In this document: piece by piece, positions 1 through 44,348 of the stretch
Numbering within the stretch: the stretch's first letter is position 1
Layout: every line of letters starts with the position of its first letter
Origin: a virus
Taxonomy: Duplodnaviria > Heunggongvirae > Uroviricota > Caudoviricetes
DNA: 44,348 bases
Strand: one strand, 5' to 3'
Virus record (IMG/VR): IMGVR_UViG_2740892273_000003
The notes under the pieces: generated by a model
The model's database searches: none
What the model saw: the letters and a program-made list of their open reading frames with translations, nothing else
Told to the model about the DNA's origin: nothing
Position numbers and translations under genes: made by a program

Positions 1-90
1 GAACAGGAGGGACAGCTGATAGAAACAGAAGCCACTGGAGCACCTCAAAAACACCATCATACACTAAATCAGTAAGTTGGCAGCATCACC
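1..90 (-). mobile_element. insA: IS1 terminal segment (terminal inverted repeat plus first ~12 codons of insA); element continues beyond the window start
   Basis: Reverse complement of 1-90 reads GGTGATGCTGCCAACTTACTGAT... followed by GTG GCT TCT GTT TCT ATC AGC TGT CCC TCC TGT TC (VASVSISCPSC), matching the IS1 end and InsA N-terminus from memory; similarity stops abruptly at 90/91. Confidence 0.75.
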
Positions 91-723
91 AGCCTTCTTG
101 AGGCTACCACCTGTTTTCAGGTGTCATTCAGACGTGATTTGCCCCAGATTGGGAAAGCACGCTTTTTTCTCAGCTATCGTCCTCTTATTTTGCCGTTACA
201 TTTCTTTTTGCATTCTAATGATTAATTTACAATAATAATATCGGTAATTATTGAGTAATAATAAATTAATTATTGCAAATGTAATTTAATTCCATCTTCG
301 CGTTATATTCCAATCTTTAATCTCCGCATGGAACAAGTTGCATGCGTGACTATATTAAGACGACTTATAACCACCAAAACATTTGCTTTGCAAGCAAAAA
401 CAGTGACCATTGACTCTAAGAAAATTCCGATCTATTGTTAGGGTCATCAAAGTTACTTAACAGTATTCCGAAATGAAAATACAAAGCAAGCTAATTGTCT
501 TATTAAACATTATTATTGCATTTATATTATTTGAGCTTTTAGCTCAAAAATTTGGTTTGAGTACATTATTTTAAAGCAAGATAAACAATATCGGGCACTC
601 TAGTTTTTATAATTAACAATTAAACGTCCATAAAATGTTATTTACTTTTCTTCGCTATTGTCATATCTTAATATAGTGGCTTACGCCACTCTACTTTCAT
701 CACATTTTGTACGTTTATGTACT

Positions 724-755
724 CGCCATGAAGCTCTTTCATGGCGATTTTTTAT
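724..755 (+). terminator. Intrinsic terminator on plus strand (CGCCATGAA-gctct-TTCATGGCG then T-run)
   Basis: 9-bp perfect stem, 5-nt loop, followed by ATTTTTTATT; points toward the tfa 3' end, implying a plus-strand transcription unit in the AT-rich 91-720 region. Confidence 0.5.
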
Positions 756-839
756 TCTTAATCCAAGAACATACTCCCTACCTATAGCAAAATCACTTTT
801 TTAACAAAAGAATAACGTATTTAGGTAATCATTACGAAT

Positions 840-1421
840 TTACCCTATAGGTGCTACTGGCCATTCAATATCCGGTGCAGTTGATGTATCAACACGGTTC
901 AGCAACACCCGATACTTTTTCCAAGCTTCCAGCAACAAGGTTTCTTTCTCCGTTGCGATCTCCAGATCCACAGCATCCTGAAGCGGCGCTATATGCTCAC
1001 TGGCTACCTGCATCAGGCTGTTTTTTGTTTCTTCCGCCTCCCGGATCCGGAACAGTTTTTCTGCTTCCGTATCCTTCACCCAGGCTGTGCCGTTCCACTT
1101 CTGAAACTCCCCTTCCGGCGACAACCAAGTAACATTTTCCGGTAACGGACCGAGTTCAGAAATAAATAACGCGTCGCCGGAAGCCACGTCATAAACCGTT
1201 TTACCCCGATGATCTTCAACGAGATGCCACGATGACTCATCACTGTTGAAAACAGCCACGAAACCAGCCGGAATATCTGGCGGTGCAATATCGGTACTGT
1301 TTGCAGGCAGACCTGTATGAGGCGGAATATATGCATCACCTTCACCAATAAATTCATTAGTTCCGGCCAGCAGGTTATAAATTTTTATGGTCCGTGCTTG
1401 TTCACTCATTCTGAATGCCAT
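840..1421 (-). CDS. tfa: Tail fiber assembly protein (lambda Tfa-like, 193 aa)
   Basis: ORF length and position immediately downstream of the side tail fiber gene; start overlaps stf stop. Confidence 0.8.
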
Positions 1422-4400
1422 TATGCGAGCCTCACAATATAGTTAAATGCGATGTTTTTGACGGTGTTTTCCGCGTTACCAGCAGCGTTAACGGTGATGG
1501 TGTGTCCATGTGAACCAATCGCAACAGAGTGCGTATGAGCACCAATACCGACAGTATGCGCGTGTGCACCCGCAGATGCTGCTGTGCCGGACAGTGAGTG
1601 TGTATGGTTTCCTTCTGAAGATGATTTACCTACCCATTGGGAGGTGCCACTGGTTAATGAGCCACTGATACCAACCTGATTAGTCCCGCTAACTTGAGTA
1701 CTCCCTGCCGGAAACATTCCAGTAGGTTGACTCCCGCTATTCGTTCTGGGCCCAGTCTGACTATGTTGGTGGGCCCCAGCTGAACTTGTAGAGCCGCTCA
1801 GACTGTGCGTATGCGCCCCGGTGTTATTCGTGGATTTAGTGCCGTAATCAAACGACGATGTGGTTTTCGTCCCCAAATCCGTACTGGATGCGCTGGCGCT
1901 GTGGGTGTGCGATTTAATGCCATCCTGTTCCTGAGACAATACGGCACGACCACTGGCGGGCTTGCCCTTAATCGTCCAGCCACGCATATCAGGGATCACG
2001 CCTGACGGATAAGCGGCTGCAAGTTTCGGGTAAGCAGATTTGTCAAAAGTCTGCCCCTGCATCAGGGCATAACCAGACGGAACGGTATCTGATGGCCACG
2101 GGATTGGTGCACCGACTGGATAAAACTCTGCAGGAGGATGAGCCGAGGTGTAAAGCTGCGCCCACGGCGACCAGTTTGCGTCGGTCGTATCCCGTCGTGA
2201 ACGAATAAATGCCGGAGCATGAGCACCGCTTGTACCACTCCAGCCGATGAGTAACTCACCTTCGCCAACGGCTGTCATCCCTTTCAGGTGAATGATATTT
2301 CCATACGCTGTTGGATATCCGTTGTTATACACCTCGTATAACTCAAGACCTGCTGCCCCCTGCGTATTGTCTGTCAGCGCGGCTACCCGACCTTTTGAAG
2401 CCAGATTAACTGATGATACTGCTGTTCCACCTGACGGTAGCGCCCCGATCTCTGATGCCGTTGGCTTATTTCTGGAGTTATAGTCCCTTCGCCAGCCAGG
2501 TGAATAATCTGTTCCGTGATTAATATAGGTAAACTGGGCGTTGGTTGTTCCGCCACCGCTGGATGTGGTCGGAGTGGTAATGCGGATCGTCATCGCTGAC
2601 TTTATCCCCATTACTTCAATGACAGCTCCGGCGAGATGAATATTACCGCAGCCAGTATCAGTAATGATTTTATTATTGCCATAAGACCAGGAACCCTTGC
2701 ACATCCAGTATGGATGGTTAAATGCTCCCTGAGAATCCAGCCACTCGATAAACTGTGCAGTCGTCCAGTTTCCTGTTGTTGTGCTTACTGACCCACCGAA
2801 GGCACGGCAGGCACCAATATTTTTCGTAAAGGTGTCTTTGCCAGGGATATCCGCACCGTTCTGATCTTTCTGCAGACGTTTCTCAGCATTGTCATTGGCT
2901 GCTTTTACTGCCTTTGGCGTTGCCGCCAGCGTTTCAGACGTGCTGTTGGTCGCGCTGCTTAGCTGGATTATCCCTTTCTGTGCTGTCGTTGCATCCTGTG
3001 CGGTGTATTTCCCGTTAGCCAGGTCATACGCGGCCTTAACGGCTTTTGGTGTTGCCGCCAGTGACTCGGAAGTGCTGTTAGTCGCACTACTGAGCTGTAC
3101 TATCCCCTTTTTCGTCGTGCTCGCATCCTCAAGCGCCACGGCGGATGCAATATCCTCTGCCCGTTTTGCCGCTGTCTCAGCGCGCGTTGCTGCAGATTCC
3201 GCCGTACTTTTGCTCTGAGCTGCTGCCGTCGCACTACCAGCAGCCTCTGTCGCCTTCGTGGATGCCGTCGTGGCGCTGCCCTTCGCTGCTGACGCCTGTC
3301 TGGTCGCCTCATCTTTTGAAGCAGACGCCGATGATGCCGATGACGCCGCCGAACTGGCGGACGATGCGGCAGCCGTTTTTGAGGATTCTGCACGGGTTTC
3401 CGACGCTTTCGCGTTCGTTTCGGATGTCTTCGCTGCGGAAGCTGACCTCGCTGCTGCCGTGGCCTGCTCAGTGGCTTCGCCAGCCTTCGTTGTGGCTGTT
3501 GAAGCGGATGATGCGGCGCTTTCTGCCGATTTTCCGGCGGCGGTGGCACTGGCTGAGGCCTGCCCGGCACTTGTTGACGCGGCGCTGGCAGACGACGCAG
3601 CCGCTGTTTTTGAGCCTGCCGCAGCTGAGGCACTCTGTCCCGCTGCCGTTTCAGAAGACCTGGCGTTCGTCTCGGACGTTTTGGCCGCCTTCGCAGAATT
3701 TGCAGCCGCCGTCGCCGAGGAAGCTGCGCTACTGGCGCTTGATGATGCGTTCGTTTCTGATGATTTTGCCGCCTCTTTTGAAGCCGACGCATCCCGGGCT
3801 GAGGTGGCAGCTTCTGACGCTTTCGTGGTCGCGGTGGATGCAGAAGTGGCTGCTGATTGTTGTGACGCTGCCGCATTCGTTTCTAACGTTTTCGCCGCAC
3901 CGGCACTGGTAGCCGCCGCGCTTTTTGAGGACTCTGCAGCGGCAGCACTTTTTGAGGCTTCAGTGGCCTTTGTTGATGCCGTTCCTGCGCTGGAAGACGC
4001 TGACTGAGCCGACGAAGCGGCCTGTCCGGCTGACGTGCTGGCTGCACGTGCTGAATCTGCAGCATCAGTCGCATGGGTTGCCGCCTCACGGGCTGATGTG
4101 CTGGCATCGCTGGCTGATTTCTTCGCGGCTGCCGTGTTCTGTGCCACCGCGGACGCGTTACGCGCCACCTCTTCCACCATCAGCTCAAAACGGCGCAGTG
4201 CCTCCGGACGGGCATCATCCTCCGTCATGGCACCGAGAAAATCATTCAGCGTACCGGGTCGGGAATCTTCATACACGGTGATGGTCCCGGCATGTGACGG
4301 CGGGAATCCTTCCACCAACAGAATAACGCTGTACTGACCGTACTCAACGTCCATGCTGTAACGCCCGGCTTCATCCGGATTTTCTGAGGCCAGCGTGTTC

Positions 4401-34760: not shown

Positions 34761-37700
34761 ATGACATTAAACGATTTCTATGCGGATCGCTTTGGCAGCG
34801 ATCCGTTCTCGCTAATTGAAGCAGCACGGGATGAACTAACCGAGCTGGCACAGATGGCTGGTATCAACTGGTCTGCCTGTTCCGACAACATCCAACTCAA
34901 CCCTCGCGGGGGTGTTGAGCGTTACTCTTCATACAATAAAACATCCCCAGAAGCTCTCGAAAAGAGCCTCAAAGGACGCGTAGAAATTTACTCCCGGCTG
35001 GAACACAGCAAAGGGATTGATTACCCGTTCATTAACTTCGTCCATAAAGGCAGCGATGCTGGCTCATGGAGCGGTTTCTCCTTCCTGTTTTCTGAATATC
35101 GCCGTGAGCAACAACGGAATAATGCGACCGTGGTCGCACAACCGGAAGAAGAACGGGCAAGAATAGAACGTCAGGCCGAAGCACGTCGTCGCCGTGAAGA
35201 ACAAAAACGAATTAATGACCTGAAAAACAACCAAATGGACCATGAACGTTTGCTGGGATGGCTGGCATTCCACAGTGCTTGGGAACATGCTCCTGCAGAA
35301 GACGGCTCATGGCCATATGCGATTAAAAAAGGTATTCGTGACGTTTTTAATTCGTGTGATGTGCGTCGCGTGACCAGTCACGACAGCGCAAAATGGAGCA
35401 GGGGGCCAACCACGTATATGGCTATCCCTCTGGCTCACCTGGACGGTCGTTACGATGGTCGTATTGTTGGTTGGCAGCGAATCGACAAACAAGGTGGAAA
35501 ATACCAGACCAGCGCCGTAACCAGCGGCGATTTCGTCGGTGCCTGCTTTGTTATCGGTGAGCTGAAAGGGGCGCAAAACATCGCTGTTACAGAAGGTTTT
35601 GCTACTGGTGCATCCATCTGGCTTGCCACGAAAAAAGATAAACGCTTTGACGCTGTGGTTGTCGCTGTATCCGCTAACAACATGGTTCATGTTGTGGAAC
35701 AACTGGTAAACATGTACCCGGCGGCAAAAATCACCTGCGCACTGGATAATGACCGGAAATCAGCTACAGAAGGAAAAGGGAATACCGGCCTGCGGACTGG
35801 CTATGAAATCTTATCGAAATTCAACGATGTCCGCTGCGTCTATCCAACTTTTGAAGACGATCCGCAAATGGAGTGCAGTGACTTCAACGACCTGCACAAA
35901 CTACGTGGACTTCGTGAAACAGCACGTCAACTGTTTGCAACTGCAAACCGCCTGAAAACTGGCACTGATTTGCTATCTCTGACGCTCAACCGCCTGAAGA
36001 CAATTAAGCGGGATAACCGTCGTACTTTTGCCAAAGAGCTGCTGAGAGCAGTGGATATTGGCATGCTAACCTGTCCGGTTCCTAACAGTCCGTCAGACTT
36101 ATTTAACATGTTCTGCATCGTCCTGCGTGAAATTGGGCTGGAAAATATCTATCGCGCTACGGTAAAAGACCACATTGCCCGTCGCCTGAATAAAAAGTGC
36201 CGTATTGCCCAGGCTCCGCGCTCATTCAGCGAACGAATAACTGATCCCAATAAACGTCCTCAACATATCACCTATAAGCGTTTTGAAACTTCGGTAATGA
36301 CCGATGACGTCCTGAAGTATGTGCAATCACTACAGGGGATAGTCATCGTTCGTGCTGGTATGGGTTCCGGCAAATCTACTGGATTGTTACGACCTTTAAT
36401 GCATAGCTCAGAACGTGGTATCTCTGTTGCTCACCGTGTTTCCCTTATTGGTGGCCTGTGGGAAATGATGACAGAAGGAAAAGGTGTAAAAGCCGATATC
36501 CTGCACTATCAGGACCCTGGCTATCAGGAAATGGCTCCATACGCCAGTAAACTGACCATCTGCATAAACTCGATTGTTAAAAACTGCTGGCAACCATTGA
36601 TGCGCCAGCACGACTATTTTGGCTTTGACGAGGCCACGCAAGGGCTACGTGCCGTTCTTTCCGGTCGGGCTATGGAAAACCCGGTGGCTGTATTCAATAC
36701 GTTAATTGACGCGCTGGCCAGAACGGAACAACACCCAATAATGGTGGATGCTGATGCGAACGATCTGCTGGTTGACCTGGCTGAACTGGCTATGAAACGC
36801 CGTGAAGAACTAGGTTTACCGGCATGGCTGCAGATCCACGTAATTGAATTACCTGTTGATGTTCGCAACCGCGAAACAGGTGAGCCAATCCGGGTTTTTT
36901 ATACAGAAAAAGATCGCATTATGACCGAGGTGGTGAAAGCTGTATCGAATGGCGAAAAAATCATGTTGGCCACCGACAGCTCCACCTTTGCAGAAGATGT
37001 GACCGCCACCCTGAGAATGCATTTTCCTGGTAAGAAATTTCTGTGTGTAAACCAGAAAAACAAACCAGAGCCAGAAGTTGAAGCATTTACCAATCAACCG
37101 AAAAAGATGGTCAAAAAATACGACGGCCTGATTTATAGCCCGTCTATTTCATCCGGTGTGTCGATTGAGCAAAAACATTTTGACCGTCATTTCGGCATGT
37201 TCTGTGGTGAAGTTGTACCCAGCGACGCAGTGCAAATGCTACGCCGCGACCGTACAGCAAAAGAATTTATTATCGGCTTTGATAAAGCTCGCGCAAAACG
37301 TGAAACTGACCCGCAAAAAATAGAACGAGCATTCGCCCAGGCATTGCTTGCTACCGCAGGCATGAACGGTGAACTGACGGATGTCGTTTTCGATGGCGAC
37401 CGTATATCAATGGGGGTGGCCAATACCGACTTTACCAGGATGAAAATTAAAGCAGCCGCAATTGAAGCGTCTGCGCGTAACGACTACGCCAGCAACATGA
37501 TCTGCATCATGCACAGCGACGGTTATAAGGTATCGCCGCTGGCCACCGATTATGCTGCGAATGATATCGGTAAAGATCTGCGTAAAGAAGCGCGGGATAT
37601 TGTGTGGGAACAGACACTGGATCTGCATCTCAATACAGAAACTCCACAAGAATCAGAGCGTGAAGAACTGCTAAAAAAACGCGCGCTGACGCTTGAAGAA

Positions 37701-38756
37701 CAAGCAAAACTTGTCCGCTGGGATATTGAGAACGAACTGAAACTACCGGTTGAAGAAGGCACGCTGAAATTCTATTTCGATGGTGCTCGAGACAAAGTTC
37801 GCCGCTATGAAACAATGCTTTTAGATGAGGTAACAGCTCGTCGTTACGACCGGGAAGAAGCAGCCATCAATTTTACCTACGCATACCGTCAGGCGGGACA
37901 GTGGCAATATTTTGTAGTGACCGCGATGACTCGCGAGCAGGCTGATGATGTCTTTAAAACTAAATTCCCTGGAATAATCGACTACAAGGTAAAAGCTACT
38001 CCTACTGTTGAAGTCGGGGCGCGCGGTTTCTATGCGCTTAAATCAGCAACTCTCCGGCAGTACTTTATCGACTGCGGTATCAACCCTGAGACTATGACCG
38101 GCGAGGCGACTCAGGAGCGTCTCAAATTCGCTCGAGATAACCTCATGACAGCCGAACGCCGTGACCTGTTGAATAACGTTCTGCACATTGGTGGTTTTAT
38201 GACGCCAAAAGGGAAGCCTAAAGTGCCGGAAGCGTTGTTTAAAAACATTTGCGACTCTCTTGGCCTTAAAACAGGTAAACGTCGCGGCAGAGACGGCGAT
38301 AAGCGTCCAACCTTGCGTTTTGTTGAGCCTGAATCAGCGGCATTTATGCTGGATATTCTTGTTCAGCGTCAGAAAGATGGCCTAACCCTAAAAACGCGTA
38401 AAGCCGAGAAGACAGCCATCGAAATGGATCGCGATTTGGATCTCAATATATATATGGATGATAAAACGCGATCCACAAACGAGCAGGTTCAAAACGCCCC
38501 TCATTCAGTAATTTCTGAGGCTTTGGCCGTATTGCCGGTGGCTGTTCCTGAGTCCTGGGCGATGAGTGCGCTTTCCGGTGAGGAGCTGGCCACTATGTCA
38601 TCATGGTCATCAGCCAGCATAGCTATGACGTTTGCATCTCTGTATCTCACAGAGTTCATGGATCACTTGTCCAGCAATGAATTGCGGCGGTTACGAGAAT
38701 ACATTACCGGGAATAGCTCATGCAGCTACGAAGAGCAGGGCGCTTTCTATGGGTAA
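34761..38756 (+). CDS. repA: Replication protein RepA, multidomain primase-helicase (1331 aa, N15 RepA-like)
   Basis: Toprim-like primase motifs (NIAVTEGFATGASI; CALDNDRK), Walker A (GMGSGKST) and Walker B (YFGFDEAT) in the central region; size close to the ~1.3 kaa N15 RepA as recalled. Confidence 0.8.
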   Translation: MTLNDFYADRFGSDPFSLIEAARDELTELAQMAGINWSACSDNIQLNPRGGVERYSSYNKTSPEALEKSLKGRVEIYSRLEHSKGIDYPFINFVHKGSDAGSWSGFSFLFSEYRREQQRNNATVVAQPEEERARIERQAEARRRREEQKRINDLKNNQMDHERLLGWLAFHSAWEHAPAEDGSWPYAIKKGIRDVFNSCDVRRVTSHDSAKWSRGPTTYMAIPLAHLDGRYDGRIVGWQRIDKQGGKYQTSAVTSGDFVGACFVIGELKGAQNIAVTEGFATGASIWLATKKDKRFDAVVVAVSANNMVHVVEQLVNMYPAAKITCALDNDRKSATEGKGNTGLRTGYEILSKFNDVRCVYPTFEDDPQMECSDFNDLHKLRGLRETARQLFATANRLKTGTDLLSLTLNRLKTIKRDNRRTFAKELLRAVDIGMLTCPVPNSPSDLFNMFCIVLREIGLENIYRATVKDHIARRLNKKCRIAQAPRSFSERITDPNKRPQHITYKRFETSVMTDDVLKYVQSLQGIVIVRAGMGSGKSTGLLRPLMHSSERGISVAHRVSLIGGLWEMMTEGKGVKADILHYQDPGYQEMAPYASKLTICINSIVKNCWQPLMRQHDYFGFDEATQGLRAVLSGRAMENPVAVFNTLIDALARTEQHPIMVDADANDLLVDLAELAMKRREELGLPAWLQIHVIELPVDVRNRETGEPIRVFYTEKDRIMTEVVKAVSNGEKIMLATDSSTFAEDVTATLRMHFPGKKFLCVNQKNKPEPEVEAFTNQPKKMVKKYDGLIYSPSISSGVSIEQKHFDRHFGMFCGEVVPSDAVQMLRRDRTAKEFIIGFDKARAKRETDPQKIERAFAQALLATAGMNGELTDVVFDGDRISMGVANTDFTRMKIKAAAIEASARNDYASNMICIMHSDGYKVSPLATDYAANDIGKDLRKEARDIVWEQTLDLHLNTETPQESEREELLKKRALTLEEQAKLVRWDIENELKLPVEEGTLKFYFDGARDKVRRYETMLLDEVTARRYDREEAAINFTYAYRQAGQWQYFVVTAMTREQADDVFKTKFPGIIDYKVKATPTVEVGARGFYALKSATLRQYFIDCGINPETMTGEATQERLKFARDNLMTAERRDLLNNVLHIGGFMTPKGKPKVPEALFKNICDSLGLKTGKRRGRDGDKRPTLRFVEPESAAFMLDILVQRQKDGLTLKTRKAEKTAIEMDRDLDLNIYMDDKTRSTNEQVQNAPHSVISEALAVLPVAVPESWAMSALSGEELATMSSWSSASIAMTFASLYLTEFMDHLSSNELRRLREYITGNSSCSYEEQGAFYG
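35123..35138. repeat. sopC-like centromere palindrome copy 5 (TGCGACCGTGGTCGCA), inside repA
   Basis: Same palindrome embedded in the repA coding sequence (encodes NATVVAQ). Confidence 0.6.
38424..38476. other. Candidate replication origin inside the repA 3' region
   Basis: Imperfect inverted repeats GGATCGCGATTT / AAACGCGATCC containing GATC sites, flanking an ATATATATAT tract. Confidence 0.35.
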
Positions 38757-39758: not shown

Positions 39759-40571
39759 ATGCGTAACAAAAAAACAACAGCTTTATTACTCTCTATCTTG
39801 TTATTATCTGGATGCACTTATCAATATGATAATAAGGCATCAACGGACGTTGAGTATAAATTCGAAAAAGAAAAAAGAGTACCTATCAACTCTGTTGGTG
39901 ATTTTAGCAGCAAAATACTCACAGGTAAGGAATTTAATAGAATTATTGCATCAAAGATAGATGATGGTTCATGGCGTGGATATGTCGTTCACTCATTAAC
40001 ATACGCGCCATACAACAACGTTTTAACATCTCAAGGTTTGTCTATCCCTAGAAGTATCACATACTCAGGAACATATCTTAACCGTGATTTTGTTGAGAAT
40101 AGCGGTAGTGATAGCGTGATAACATCTCGAGATATGTCTGGATGGTATGGTTTTCATGTCGATTCCTCTGAAATAACAAAGCATGGAAGCTATGTTGGTG
40201 CTAATGCTTTTGGAATATCTGCTGATGTAGAAGTGTTAAATACTTTAGGTGCCGAAATTATCTTTGGTAGTACACAAATAAATGAAGGGAACCCTGAAAC
40301 AATATGGGCAGATATTGATATAAAAGGACAAATACCAAAAGATGTTAATGTAAAAGACCTTAGAATTGAATATTTAGCAAAGATAAATGGGTTAAGCAGT
40401 AATCATATTGATATAACATCACCTACTATTTTTAACCCGTCAGATATGAGCCATAAAACTCAGGTTTTTATGGGTGAGTTATTAGCCGCGCGCCTAATAA
40501 ATATTAAAACGGGAGAAATTTATCCAGTACAGCTAGAGTGGGTGTTCCGTTCGCGTGAGGCTTTCTTATAA
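39759..40571 (+). CDS. Lipoprotein (270 aa), AT-rich moron-like gene
   Basis: Signal peptide with lipobox LLLSGC; markedly AT-rich coding sequence; followed by a perfect hairpin GAACAAT-aac-ATTGTTC. Confidence 0.55.
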   Translation: MRNKKTTALLLSILLLSGCTYQYDNKASTDVEYKFEKEKRVPINSVGDFSSKILTGKEFNRIIASKIDDGSWRGYVVHSLTYAPYNNVLTSQGLSIPRSITYSGTYLNRDFVENSGSDSVITSRDMSGWYGFHVDSSEITKHGSYVGANAFGISADVEVLNTLGAEIIFGSTQINEGNPETIWADIDIKGQIPKDVNVKDLRIEYLAKINGLSSNHIDITSPTIFNPSDMSHKTQVFMGELLAARLINIKTGEIYPVQLEWVFRSREAFL

Positions 40572-40699: not shown

Positions 40700-40786
40700 A
40701 GTCACCTCGCTGCGGTAAATCCCGCAGTCGGGACTTCGCAATCCTGGCAAAACGAAGCGCACAACACGCGCCAGCGTGTTTTTTTG
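40700..40786 (+). ncRNA. Candidate small regulatory RNA (P1 c4 / N15 CA-like) preceding icd-ant
   Basis: Promoter-like TTGACG (~40673) with a weak -10; hairpin CTGCGG-taaatc-CCGCAG; intrinsic terminator ACACGC-gcca-GCGTGT then TTTTTTT at ~40764-40786; lies directly upstream of an icd-like gene. Confidence 0.4.
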
Positions 40787-40951
40787 TGTGTATAGACCTG
40801 CGCATATCCGAATTATGGTGGCTCAGGTGGGGCTGACTTCGGTCGGGCCGGTTTCTTCGTTTACCGGTATTGCGAACCCCGCCTGGGCTACCACCAATAA
40901 AGAGATTCGCAACTCTGGTGGTAGCACGACCAATAAAACGGAGTGCATACC

Positions 40952-41116: not shown

Positions 41117-41346
41117 ATCAGGTAAAAATGAACACTGTTGGCCTGCTGGAATCGTTGGATGAACGTCTGGCTCAGGTCTATGCGCTCGTATCATCAGCCC
41201 ATCGGACAGTCTCCAGTTGTGAGGCGTCGATTTACCTCTCAGAGGCTGGAAAACTTCTGCAGATTGCGTGTGAGTTAACGCATGAAGCACAGGGATATTC
41301 TGCGTCTCTCTCGTCGCACTTGCTGCGCGATAAGGAGGCTGAATGA
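41113..41346 (+). CDS. Hypothetical protein (77 aa) in the icd-ant operon
   Basis: ATGA overlaps with both the upstream and downstream genes. Confidence 0.5.
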   Translation: MNQVKMNTVGLLESLDERLAQVYALVSSAHRTVSSCEASIYLSEAGKLLQIACELTHEAQGYSASLSSHLLRDKEAE

Positions 41347-42125
41347 GCGCGTTAGCAGTCTTTTCCTTTCAGGAAGAGCATCAGGTTCGTGTAGTGATGA
41401 TTAACGGTGAGCCGTGGTTTGTGGCTAAGGATGTATGTGATGCTTTAAGACTCGTTAATTCCCGGAAGGCGCTAATGTCTCTGGATGAGGATGAAAAGGG
41501 TGTAACTTTAAGTTACACCCCTGGCGGAGAGCAAAAGCTAAATATTATTTCAGAGTCAGGTCTATACACCCTGATCCTCCGCTGCCGTGACGCGGTGAAG
41601 CAAGGCACAACAGCTTGGCGGTTTCGCAAATGGGTAACGAACGAAGTCTTGCCCTCTATTCGCAAAAATGGAGAGTACGTTTACATCGAGCCTGAGCCAA
41701 TGCGAGCAGCGGAGCCGTTGAACTGGAGGCAGAAAGAGTATCTGCGAGGGCTGATTAACGATATAGCACAAAGTTTTCAGTACCGAAATGCCTGGATTAG
41801 CGGTGTATGGTTAGCTTTGCGTCGGGCGTGTCGTAATCCATCCCCGAACCCCATAACGGTTGATGATTTGCCAGCAATTACGGCAGAACTGCGCCGGATT
41901 TTGACGGCTGCTGAGTCGGCATTGGGGAACATGCGCACGTATGAACGAGAGTTGTTGCGTGATGTTGTTCGTGGGGGTAGGCGGAGTATGTCGTGTGGTG
42001 ATTTACCCATCACCGATATTAACTCTGATCTGGAAAAGGCGTTACCCGCGCATTTTGAACTGGCAGTTCAAAAACTTGAGCAGTTATCCGCGCAGCTAAA
42101 GCCAGCAGAAATCACCAATAAATAG
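41343..42125 (+). CDS. ant: Antirepressor with Bro-N domain (260 aa)
   Basis: N-terminal FSFQEEHQVRVVMINGEPWFVAKDVCDALRL...SESGLYTLILR...KWVTNEVLPSIRKNG matches the Bro-N domain pattern. Confidence 0.7.
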   Translation: MSALAVFSFQEEHQVRVVMINGEPWFVAKDVCDALRLVNSRKALMSLDEDEKGVTLSYTPGGEQKLNIISESGLYTLILRCRDAVKQGTTAWRFRKWVTNEVLPSIRKNGEYVYIEPEPMRAAEPLNWRQKEYLRGLINDIAQSFQYRNAWISGVWLALRRACRNPSPNPITVDDLPAITAELRRILTAAESALGNMRTYERELLRDVVRGGRRSMSCGDLPITDINSDLEKALPAHFELAVQKLEQLSAQLKPAEITNK

Positions 42126-42261: not shown

Positions 42262-42285
42262 AAGGCACCGTTAATTCGGTGCCTT
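42262..42285. terminator. Bidirectional terminator between convergent ant and telN
   Basis: AAGGCACCG-ttaatt-CGGTGCCTT with flanking A/T. Confidence 0.55.
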
Positions 42286-42296
42286 TACTGTATGCT

Positions 42297-44198
42297 TTAA
42301 CCGAAATATGTCAGCCATGCTAACTGCATTGCTGACATGGGGCTGTTTGCACTGCCGGACCACGCATAATTCTGGCCATTATAATGAAACTCAACAACGT
42401 ATGAGCCATCACCAATATTTCTCACCGGCTTAAATACCGGCTTAGATACAGGCGAAGAAGGTGCAGGCGGTTGCTGTTCTTCTACGCTATCTTCCTCTTC
42501 CTCTTCCTCTTCCTCTATCTCAATTTCGTCGTCATCCAGATCGTCATCCTCTGATAATTCATCCGCCAGTTCAGGTATTGCTTCCAGTTCTTCTTCGTCA
42601 GGCATAACGATTTCTGGAGTATCTATTTTCAGTTGCCATTGTCCGTTTTCGCCAACAAATTGCCCCAGAGCATCAGCAGCAAATTCCAGGTATCGACTAA
42701 TCATTGTTGGGCTAAATTTGAACGCTCTTAGAGTGCTGTTCGTGATTTTTATAGAGGGGTCCTGCTCTACCAGCTGCTTAACTGTGTTATGCAGACGAAC
42801 CCCGGCATCTCCTCTGGCGAATCCAGGCATTTCGTCATCAAGCTGCTGCAATGCTTCCAGCCTGGTATTTTCGTTTCCAGTATTTGGCCTCCATGTCTTT
42901 GAGAAGTTGGCCAGCTTGAATTGCTTATAGTGTAATTGAGTGTTTTCATCGTCATGGCCTAAAATTTCCATAAAGAAAACATCTTCATCTACGTTTTTCC
43001 AACGAGGATCTACGCGGAAAAACATTTCATACGCAATACGGGCATAAATAGCACGACTATCTTTATAAACACGGCGGTCATCTTTGAAAAATGATTTAAC
43101 CCACGGGTTAAAAGCCTTTGCTAATATGGCATTAATACGTCCGTTTTCAGAGCGTGTGTCGTTATCTCCATAACCTTTAACGACATCATCAAAATCAGAT
43201 GCTGCTGGGCATGAGCGAAGTACATTTATTAAATAAACAAATGTTTTTGCTTCGCATAATGTATATATTTTTCTGGTTATATCATCAGAAGTTCTTTTTT
43301 TAGCTTGGCCTAAAAAATCAACGGTATACTTACCAGAAACAGTAAATGTACCTTGATACATAATCTCAATCATTCGTCTTCCTGACAATGCAGCAAGTGC
43401 AAATGCCAAAGGAGCCATACCTGAACGAGTGTTTAGATTATTTAATGTAGCAGGGCTATTTATAATATCGTAAATAGCTTGCATATATTTAGGGTAATCA
43501 ATGACCACCACGTTACGTTTCTTATTGTGCAGAACGTCCGCCCATCGTTGCTGGATAGATGCACGTTCGGCAGGGCTTAGTTGAAGATGATAGAGAATCT
43601 CATGGTTAACTTTTAGCTGATTCAACTCCTCAAGTAAGGCAGATCCTTGCTGTAGTAATTTATATAAATAATCGCGCTTATCTTTCCAGTTATCGCTGGT
43701 TAAATCAGAAATGGCGAATTGCCACTCTTTATATTTATTTGATAATTTCAATAACTTATTATGACTTTTGTTATCGCCAATTCTGATATTAGATAAATCT
43801 TCTGATAGAGGGAGAATTAATTTTAATTTTGCCTGTAAAGCTGACATTCTCTGGCGAATATCGGCAGCAGGTAGAGAAAGCCATGACAATAGCTCCTCAT
43901 TATATAAAGGATACTTTTCAGATAGGCGATGTATATTTTTTTCAAAGCTATGATGAAGTTTATCATCAAACCGTTTTCTGGCCCTGCTCATATAGGCATT
44001 GAATGTGTTGGCTGTAATTCTTTTTTCTAATCCTTTCCCCCTAAACTTTCGCTTGTCATTAAATAATGCATTTTTAAATTTTAATGCAACAGCCTTTATT
44101 TTTTTTGTTTTCTCCCCTTGAGGACGGTCAGAGTTATCTATTGACTCAACATCGCTAACAAGTGAGTTTATTAATTCACCGATTTTTACTTTGCTCAT
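42297..44198 (-). CDS. telN: Protelomerase (telomere resolvase), TelN-like (633 aa)
   Basis: N-terminus MSKVKIGELIN..., internal blocks such as RITANTFNAYMSRARKRFDD and WRPN..ENTRL, and a C-terminal acidic tract match the N15 TelN protein as recalled; length is close to the 631-aa N15 protein. Confidence 0.8.
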   Translation of the reverse strand: MSKVKIGELINSLVSDVESIDNSDRPQGEKTKKIKAVALKFKNALFNDKRKFRGKGLEKRITANTFNAYMSRARKRFDDKLHHSFEKNIHRLSEKYPLYNEELLSWLSLPAADIRQRMSALQAKLKLILPLSEDLSNIRIGDNKSHNKLLKLSNKYKEWQFAISDLTSDNWKDKRDYLYKLLQQGSALLEELNQLKVNHEILYHLQLSPAERASIQQRWADVLHNKKRNVVVIDYPKYMQAIYDIINSPATLNNLNTRSGMAPLAFALAALSGRRMIEIMYQGTFTVSGKYTVDFLGQAKKRTSDDITRKIYTLCEAKTFVYLINVLRSCPAASDFDDVVKGYGDNDTRSENGRINAILAKAFNPWVKSFFKDDRRVYKDSRAIYARIAYEMFFRVDPRWKNVDEDVFFMEILGHDDENTQLHYKQFKLANFSKTWRPNTGNENTRLEALQQLDDEMPGFARGDAGVRLHNTVKQLVEQDPSIKITNSTLRAFKFSPTMISRYLEFAADALGQFVGENGQWQLKIDTPEIVMPDEEELEAIPELADELSEDDDLDDDEIEIEEEEEEEEDSVEEQQPPAPSSPVSKPVFKPVRNIGDGSYVVEFHYNGQNYAWSGSANSPMSAMQLAWLTYFG

Positions 44199-44289
44199 CT
44201 TTCCTCTCCTGATTATCCGCTCGGATTATCGTAACACAATTTGAGAATAAGATAACTAATAACGCGTTAACTTAGGCACAAACTAACAG

Positions 44290-44327
44290 AACACAATAAC
44301 GGATAATAAATAAAAACACAATATCGG
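44290..44327. repeat. Two direct copies of AACACAATA(A/T)CGG, 25 bp apart, ~90-130 bp upstream of telN
   Basis: Both copies contain a CACAAT core resembling the outer TelN-binding repeats of the N15 telomere-resolution site as recalled; the window ends 21 bp later. Confidence 0.35.
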
Positions 44328-44348
44328 AACGTTAAAATTTGTTCCTTG

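Follow-up and report, generated by a model that had tools for sequence, protein, structure and literature searches.

The DNA analysed here, a stretch of 44,348 nt that we refer to as the window, is very probably a draft contig, nearly complete, of a linear plasmid-prophage of Escherichia of the N15 type (Ravinvirus-like), an assignment that includes the mechanism of telomere resolution and the role of the subtelomeric repeats. On the left the contig breaks off at an IS1 element; on the right it stops about 41 nt before the telL hairpin. Its right end is a textbook example of the DNA beside an N15-type telomere, and public databases already contain identical sequences. The present analysis adds a third repeat copy, the predicted position of the hairpin tip (+41 relative to the window end), and the finding that the outer repeats are conserved across lineages and strictly polar. 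N15-type phage-plasmids are a recognised group (PMC7969092).

The last gene in the window, telN, is directed inward in the ORF listing, and 150 nt of upstream DNA are left between its ATG at 44198 and the window end at 44348, as described in an earlier sequence-only reading of this DNA. The predicted protein contains the Pfam domains TelK_N, TelK_muzzle, ResT-TelK_cat and TelK_stirrup, with scores of 88.7-170.9 bits (cut-offs 27-28). Its sole match in the PDB is TelK of phage phiKO2 (2V6E; E=2.4e-295, residues 1-536), and N15 TelN shares 76.8% identity with it from end to end. The catalytic tyrosine is kept as Tyr424 in the motif LHYKQF, aligning with the Tyr of HYKQF in TelK and with Tyr425 of N15 TelN; the Y425F mutant of N15 TelN is catalytically dead (PMC12624138). 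An acidic, E/D-rich linker at about residues 536-575 is followed by a short C-terminal domain. At least 40 blocks of the public collection include contigs that encode the identical TelN protein. The four TelK domains, the structural match and the identity to N15 TelN bear out the proposal that the gene at the window edge is a protelomerase, with a predicted cleaving-joining activity.

No telO-like sequence (up to 3 mismatches) was detected in the window, and palindromes in its last 400 nt do not exceed 10 bp. That telRL/telO is missing reflects truncation of the window and does not imply that the element lacks the site. Over the last 449 nt, the window is 100% identical to the E. coli plasmid CP088379, 99.6% identical to YDC107_1 (CP025712; Escherichia phage, genus Ravinvirus) and 98.9% identical to PhiR46_1 (PV340565); plasmids of E. 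coli, E. albertii and Shigella, ~30 in all, are 95-100% identical over this segment. Every matching record that extends past 44348 continues ACTTTGTTCTGAAAATCAGCACATAATnnCCCATTATACGC|GCG, i.e. into its own reverse complement. In the records with 98-100% identity the dyad centre, CCATTATACGC|GCGTATAATGG, is located 41 nt past the window end. At this centre the relatives carry the 22-bp telO CCATTATACGCGCGTATAATGG, which is the telO of N15, and the 28-nt half of an N15-type telRL begins 14 nt past base 44348. The true half-site ATCAGCACATAAT (at about -28 to -16 from the tip) and the telO half CCATTATACGC both fall 14-41 nt past the boundary. Since telO is identical to that of N15 and the relatives supply the 41-nt continuation, the hairpin tip of the source molecule is predicted at +41 from 44348. 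The sequence-only reading had placed the resolution site probably just outside or at the boundary, to be recognised by a ~56-bp palindrome beyond 44348 and to be abandoned if more than 500 bp of ordinary non-palindromic sequence followed. In the relatives the site does lie 14-41 nt past 44348 with the telO dyad 41 nt out, the opposite of such ordinary sequence. The expected continuation past 44348 is ACTTTGTTCTGAAAATCAGCACATAAT..CCCATTATACGC; fold-back into the reverse complement would mean a hairpin telL or a telLL junction.

The distance between tip and start codon is nearly constant. Contigs with identical TelN differ from the window at 0-1 of the 150 upstream nt and, where long enough, carry the dyad 191 nt from the ATG. 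The terminal 22 nt of PhiR46_1 are annotated as 'telL site'. In the 38 loci of IMG/VR and GTDB that carry telO, gathered by exact telO DNA search, the tip-to-ATG distance was 190-193 nt, with one outlier at 178. Note that a locus search with the TelN protein was dominated by a poly-Glu pattern, with 3 loci in viral contigs and 0 in genome contigs.

Elsewhere the window has lambda-like genes for terminase, head, tail and tail fibres, including terminase GpA and tail-fibre domains, with head and tail modules 96-97% identical to those of lambdoid phages, and a DNA methylase gene. A long RepA-like ORF (Table 1) is annotated as primase or origin-binding protein in relatives; its Toprim_3 match, at 22.4 bits, is below the cut-off of 27.2. 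A C4-type antisense RNA and an isrK-like RNA are located just upstream of a Bro-N gene, which is followed by telN. This placement of the C4-type RNA is that of the N15 antirepressor region, where gene 30 is convergent with telN. The sopAB partition operon was not found in the window. In pEA8_3, sopA and sopB are situated between telRL and the tail-fibre region, and the sopAB-telR arm of the present element is probably on another contig. At the left end, bases 1-90 are the terminal 90 nt of IS1; they match at least 5000 plasmid records that carry IS1 transposase annotations, and related phages are similar from base 91 onward. An IS1 terminus at a contig end is a classic repeat-induced break. 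Mirroring of the first and last window bases, as in a complete linear record, was not observed, the first 90 bases being the IS1 terminus.

We analyzed the 150 nt upstream of telN, which have a G+C content of 33% (50% for the window) and can be aligned to the telN arms of N15, phiKO2 and others; the 41 outer nt of the arm, half of telRL included, are outside the window. A 13-mer, AACACAATAWCGG, i.e. AACACAATA(A/T)CGG, is present in two copies 25 nt apart. With up to 1 mismatch allowed, the window has no further match, and two or more were never reached in 100 shuffles. The CACAAT-containing direct repeats previously noted at 44290-44327 are thus borne out by exact positions and shuffles. The shorter 8-mer AACACAAT occurs 3 times in the whole 44-kb window when both strands are searched, in each case on the + strand and upstream of telN. 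Its copy at 44233-44240 had been overlooked in the earlier reading. The spacings of 57, 25 and 53 nt place the repeats on no common helical face. The arm also contains an inverted repeat, GGAAC-N10-GTTCC, whose right arm repeats the motif in short, inverted form (TTTGTTCC); relatives have another such copy (TTTGTTCT) just past the window end.

Table 1. Coordinates of features in the window and conservation of the telN-side arm (distances in nt from the predicted telL tip; conservation is the mean over the aligned arms).
Feature	Coordinates	Strand	Distance from tip	Conservation	Remarks
RepA-like primase/helicase	34761-38756				1331 aa; Herpes_ori_bp helicase match above cut-off
telN	42297..44198	-			633-aa ORF, ATG start; protelomerase (telomere resolvase)
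telN-side arm of 'tos' region	44199..44348	.			inner 150 nt of the 191-nt stretch from ATG to predicted telL tip
Putative Shine-Dalgarno of telN, GGAGAGG	44203..44209	-			read from sequence
Candidate extended -10 of telN, TGT-TACGAT	44228..44236	-			read from sequence; overlaps innermost repeat
Innermost repeat AACACAAT	44233..44240	+	-157	0.92	conserved island
Repeat copy AACACAATAACGG	44290..44302	+	-100	0.89	conserved island
Repeat copy AACACAATATCGG	44315..44327	+	-75	0.89	conserved island
Inverted repeat GGAAC-N10-GTTCC	44326..44345	.			from L001 coordinates 1927-1946 and alignment
L3-type half-site ATCAGCACAYAAT	beyond window		-27 to -16	0.91	conserved island
telO half	beyond window		-11 to -1	1.00	conserved island
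Remaining 137 intergenic columns				0.64	

Conservation of the arm was assessed by anchoring telN-side arms on the tip and aligning the 26 unique ones, which represent 9 lineages with pairwise identities below 90%. The three repeats stand out as conserved islands, as do the L3-type half-site and the telO half (Table 1). In the telN arms, the motif [AC]ACA[CT]A[AC] was directed toward the tip 119 times and away from it 5 times; in 28 unique sop-side arms the corresponding counts were 138 and 0, neither set of counts being phylogenetically independent. The tip-directed polarity of the motif is absolute in every lineage. The C/T position is free to vary in L3 and in the outer copies alike.

Several explanations of the repeats were weighed against a telomere function. 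The region is AT-rich and the copies are short (8-13 nt), as would be expected of chance recurrences in intergenic DNA, but such an origin has practically nothing left to stand on. Three AACAYAAT on one strand of 150 nt have a Poisson probability of about 5e-8, and not one of 20,000 shuffles of these 150 nt with matched composition (0 of 20,000) reached three copies. Moreover, the copies hold fixed positions across the 9 diverged lineages and their orientation is strictly biased. Together these observations refute a chance origin. A second explanation, which overlaps with the telomere reading and which we consider doubtful as a replacement for it, is that the repeats control transcription of telN. 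The innermost copy would be the extended -10 of the only telN promoter in the hairpin state, and the other two repeats would be operators for autoregulation by TelN or for another regulator. In the linear prophage, only the 191 nt from the tip to the ATG can accommodate the telN promoter, and the repeats cover much of this available upstream DNA. The extended -10 pattern TGnTAYGrT is kept in 26 of 26 aligned arms, including the distant L048 in which AACAYAA is lost. The innermost island is therefore probably the telN promoter, and its conservation could be explained by promoter function alone. However, the motif in the same polarity is even commoner on the sop-side arm, which has no telN downstream, and it matches the L3/R3 half-site of telRL. 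A consensus scan for a telN-sense promoter requiring both hexamers found none. Among SopB centromere sites, the CB repressor and IHF, we know of none with a consensus matching the motif. An outward-facing TTGACT-18-CATAAT straddling the window end in this lineage was considered separately; shuffles give ~1 such match, and the -35 is not kept in N15 or the Klebsiella types. A junction-dependent promoter reading through telLL into telN was dropped on account of this chance-level match and unconserved -35.

The nature of the right contig end also allows two readings. Contigs with identical TelN end at -117, -28 or -22 nt relative to the tip or at +63 nt. The E. coli-lineage GenBank records (n = 9) end from about 93 nt short of the tip to 11 nt past it, and IMG/VR contigs commonly end 11-51 nt past the tip. 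In CP088379 and in CP025712, telN is present twice, as mirror images on either side of a perfect palindrome; several 'circular' or 'complete' records of the lineage are fold-back read-throughs of the hairpin. The stop of the window 41 nt short of the tip fits this telomere pattern, without being proof of a physical end. Of the earlier suggestion that the boundary may be a hairpin telomere if the source contig ends there, the proximity of a tip is upheld by the relatives, but the boundary itself stops 41 nt before it. Alternatively, the right end could be an ordinary assembly or extraction break in a source where an intact telRL leads on to sopA-sopB, as it does in phage-form DNA or in assemblies joined into a circle. 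We regard this as unlikely. An intact telRL joined to sopA is indeed present in two contigs with identical TelN and in an E. albertii plasmid record, the window is without the sopAB arm, and the left end is itself a repeat-induced break in IS1. On the other hand, draft contigs and finished records of the lineage end within ~120 nt of the tip far beyond chance. Whichever form was sequenced, the tel site would be found 14-41 nt past the boundary.

Protelomerases of the TelN/TelK type bind as dimers to the palindromic telRL, or to replicated telLL/telRR junctions, and make staggered cuts around the dyad. A 3'-phosphotyrosyl intermediate is formed, and the halves are resealed as covalently closed hairpins; the telLL and telRR junctions are resolved in the same manner after replication. 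In the element described here, Tyr424 of TelN would be the nucleophile for the staggered cuts around the telRL dyad. The outer repeat copies share the core of the half-site that is contacted in telRL, and their position and polarity are kept on both arms. They most likely recruit TelN. Additional TelN molecules would probably be brought in through the stirrup/CTD1, giving rise to a subtelomeric nucleoprotein complex. As the innermost copy overlaps the candidate extended -10 of telN, occupancy by TelN could feed back on telN expression.

We tentatively propose, as a possibility that falls short of being the probable one, that the tip-directed AACAYAAT arrays on both arms may be loading sites for a multi-TelN cap. 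Such a cap would shield the hairpin from SbcCD, with telN expression responsive to telomere occupancy via the innermost copy. If true, a bacterial phage would have an analogue of the shelterin-type telomere caps that bind to repeats. The cap idea has been voiced for N15; binding of TelN CTD1 to all repeat copies was called 'conceivable', CTD1 was dispensable for telomere protection against SbcCD, and the 56-bp telRL alone was enough for processing (PMC12624138). That the outer repeats are conserved across lineages and share one polarity, as described above, is new support, from sequence comparison, for the idea of a repeat-bound cap.

These results have consequences mainly for annotation. The contig is to be described as an N15-type linear phage-plasmid, its right end being the telL telomere without the last 41 nt and its sopAB-telR arm having been split off by IS1. 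Several 'circular, complete' public plasmid and phage records of the lineage are to be read as fold-back read-throughs, and draft contigs typically end within about 120 nt of the tip. In addition, the conserved polar outer repeats offer a ready target for work on hairpin-telomere protection by TelN, a subject independent of the present window.

Yersinia phage PY54 has in common with the present element a protelomerase (Tel) and a palindromic target (pal) with the central TACGCGCGTA; as for N15, the full in vivo target of PY54 (142 bp) is larger than the minimal 42-bp palindrome (PMC3540006). PY54 differs in its more distant protein and in its flanks. TelK of phiKO2 (2V6E) is about 80% identical to the present TelN over residues 1-536, with the same 4 domains and the same telO core, whereas phiKO2-type arms have extra motif copies (-138, -92/-86/-81) and a differing layout of the sop arm.

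N15 has the same gene order as the window, a Bro-type gene convergent with telN followed by tos/telRL, and its tip-to-ATG distance is 193 nt compared to about 191-192 nt here. The AACAYAA copies of N15 are at -157, -100 and -76, versus -157, -100 and -75 in the window, with L3/R3 at -22. PMC12624138 gives the natural TelN target as about 310 bp, with L1/L2 and R1/R2 as degenerate copies of the 10-bp L3/R3 (citing Deneke 2000, 2002). The outermost N15 copies (-157 and -167) would span about 324 bp. Because this is close to the reported 310 bp, the copy at 44233 is probably equivalent to R1/L1 and that at 44290 to R2/L2 of N15, a naming that we infer from the distances. The N15 tos PCR primer tosROC-2 (GTCTCTGGATATCGTAACAC) terminates in the motif homologous to the 44233 copy (PMC2847241). 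Degenerate copies of the L3/R3 motif are likewise seen in the window, with three copies of AACACAAT compared to L3 as CACATAAT or CACACAAT. By position and sequence, the repeats correspond to the outer 'tos' repeats of the N15 type, for which TelN binding is conjectured. The resemblance to outer TelN-binding repeats of N15 noted in the sequence-only reading thus gains a positional match, but 'TelN-binding' is a conjecture in the literature. There are also differences from N15. The L3-type half-site is CACATAAT in the lineage of the window and CACACAAT in N15, and in the remainder of the 191-nt arm conservation is down to about 64%. Unlike in N15, the telR arm of the lineage (L004) diverges outside the 42-bp perfect palindrome, and the structural genes are closest to those of other lambdoid E. 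coli phages.

The closest known elements are YDC107_1, PhiR46_1, CP088379 and pEA8_3, which are 98-100% identical to the window over telN and its upstream region and 96-98.5% identical over most of its right half. In contrast to these records, the window has an IS1 left end and is without the sopAB-telR arm. It represents the same element type and, in places, effectively the same element.

Two public records of related elements, CP088379.1 (E. coli plasmid) and CP025712.1 (Escherichia phage YDC107_1), carry in nucleotides 1-3449 two copies of the protelomerase gene telN in mirror orientation round a perfect palindrome, the centre of which is telO. The records are described as a circular plasmid or as a complete phage genome, and in YDC107_1 the second telN copy is split into several 'protelomerase domain' CDSs. 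Both records are fold-back chimeras, generated from long reads running through the hairpin telomere.

We compared the arms of five relatives (L001 and L002, the loci of the two chimeric records, and the further loci L004, L051 and L052). Positions -12 to -15 from the hairpin tip, which separate the telO core from the L3 half-site, are variable among these otherwise near-identical elements, with CC, TT, TA, TC, AC or GA at -14/-13. The telL and telR arms within one intact site also differ at -12 to -15. The arms of L051 read ...AATTCCACATTA versus ...AATTACCCATTA, and thus telO itself is imperfect in this element.

A promoter-like sequence, TTGACT-18-CATAAT, spans window positions 44346-44348 and the 27 nt beyond (1947-1976, + strand, in CP088379.1), with 10/12 matches, a quality of match expected about once by chance. 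It is directed at the hairpin tip, and its -10 element is the L3 half-site; the -35 element is not conserved in the N15 or Klebsiella lineages. In the replicated telLL junction before resolution, or in uncut telRL, it would read over the dyad.

Both flanks of telN inside the window contain inverted repeats (see table). Having no T-run, the G+C-rich hairpin downstream was passed over by the terminator scan, but it may act as a bidirectional terminator. Among the arms, the upstream palindrome occurs only in the E. coli lineage.

Features of the window outside the telomere site
Feature	Position	Strand	Evidence or setting
IS009 family	880-1078	-	Rfam, full-length, 218 bits
270-aa ORF, lipoprotein-type signal (MRNKKTTALLLSILLLSGC...)	39759-40571	+	between repA and immunity RNAs
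isrK Hfq-binding RNA	40709-40784	+	Rfam, 52.8 bits
C4 antisense RNA	40811-40898	+	Rfam, 82.3 bits
G+C-rich hairpin AAGGCACCgttaattcGGTGCCTT	42263-42287		between convergent Bro-N gene and telN
10-bp perfect palindrome TAACGCGTTA	44259-44268		telN upstream region, between repeat copies

At the left end, positions 1-90 are the terminal 90 nt of an IS1 element, the last bases of which, up to base 90, are ...GGCAGCATCACC. This stretch matches at least 5000 plasmid records, which carry annotations of transposases of the IS1 family; the resemblance to related phages begins at base 91. The window lacks the sopAB-telR arm, which would be expected past the tail-fibre region. Therefore, either IS1 inserted into the prophage or the assembly broke there. 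The IS009 match lies downstream of the tail-fibre genes.

The 270-aa ORF had no match in a Pfam search and is possibly a cargo gene or a moron. The C4 antisense RNA directly follows isrK; small ORFs and the Bro-N gene (41343-42125) lie downstream of both. This block adjoining telN is an antirepressor module under antisense-RNA control, of the P1/N15 type.
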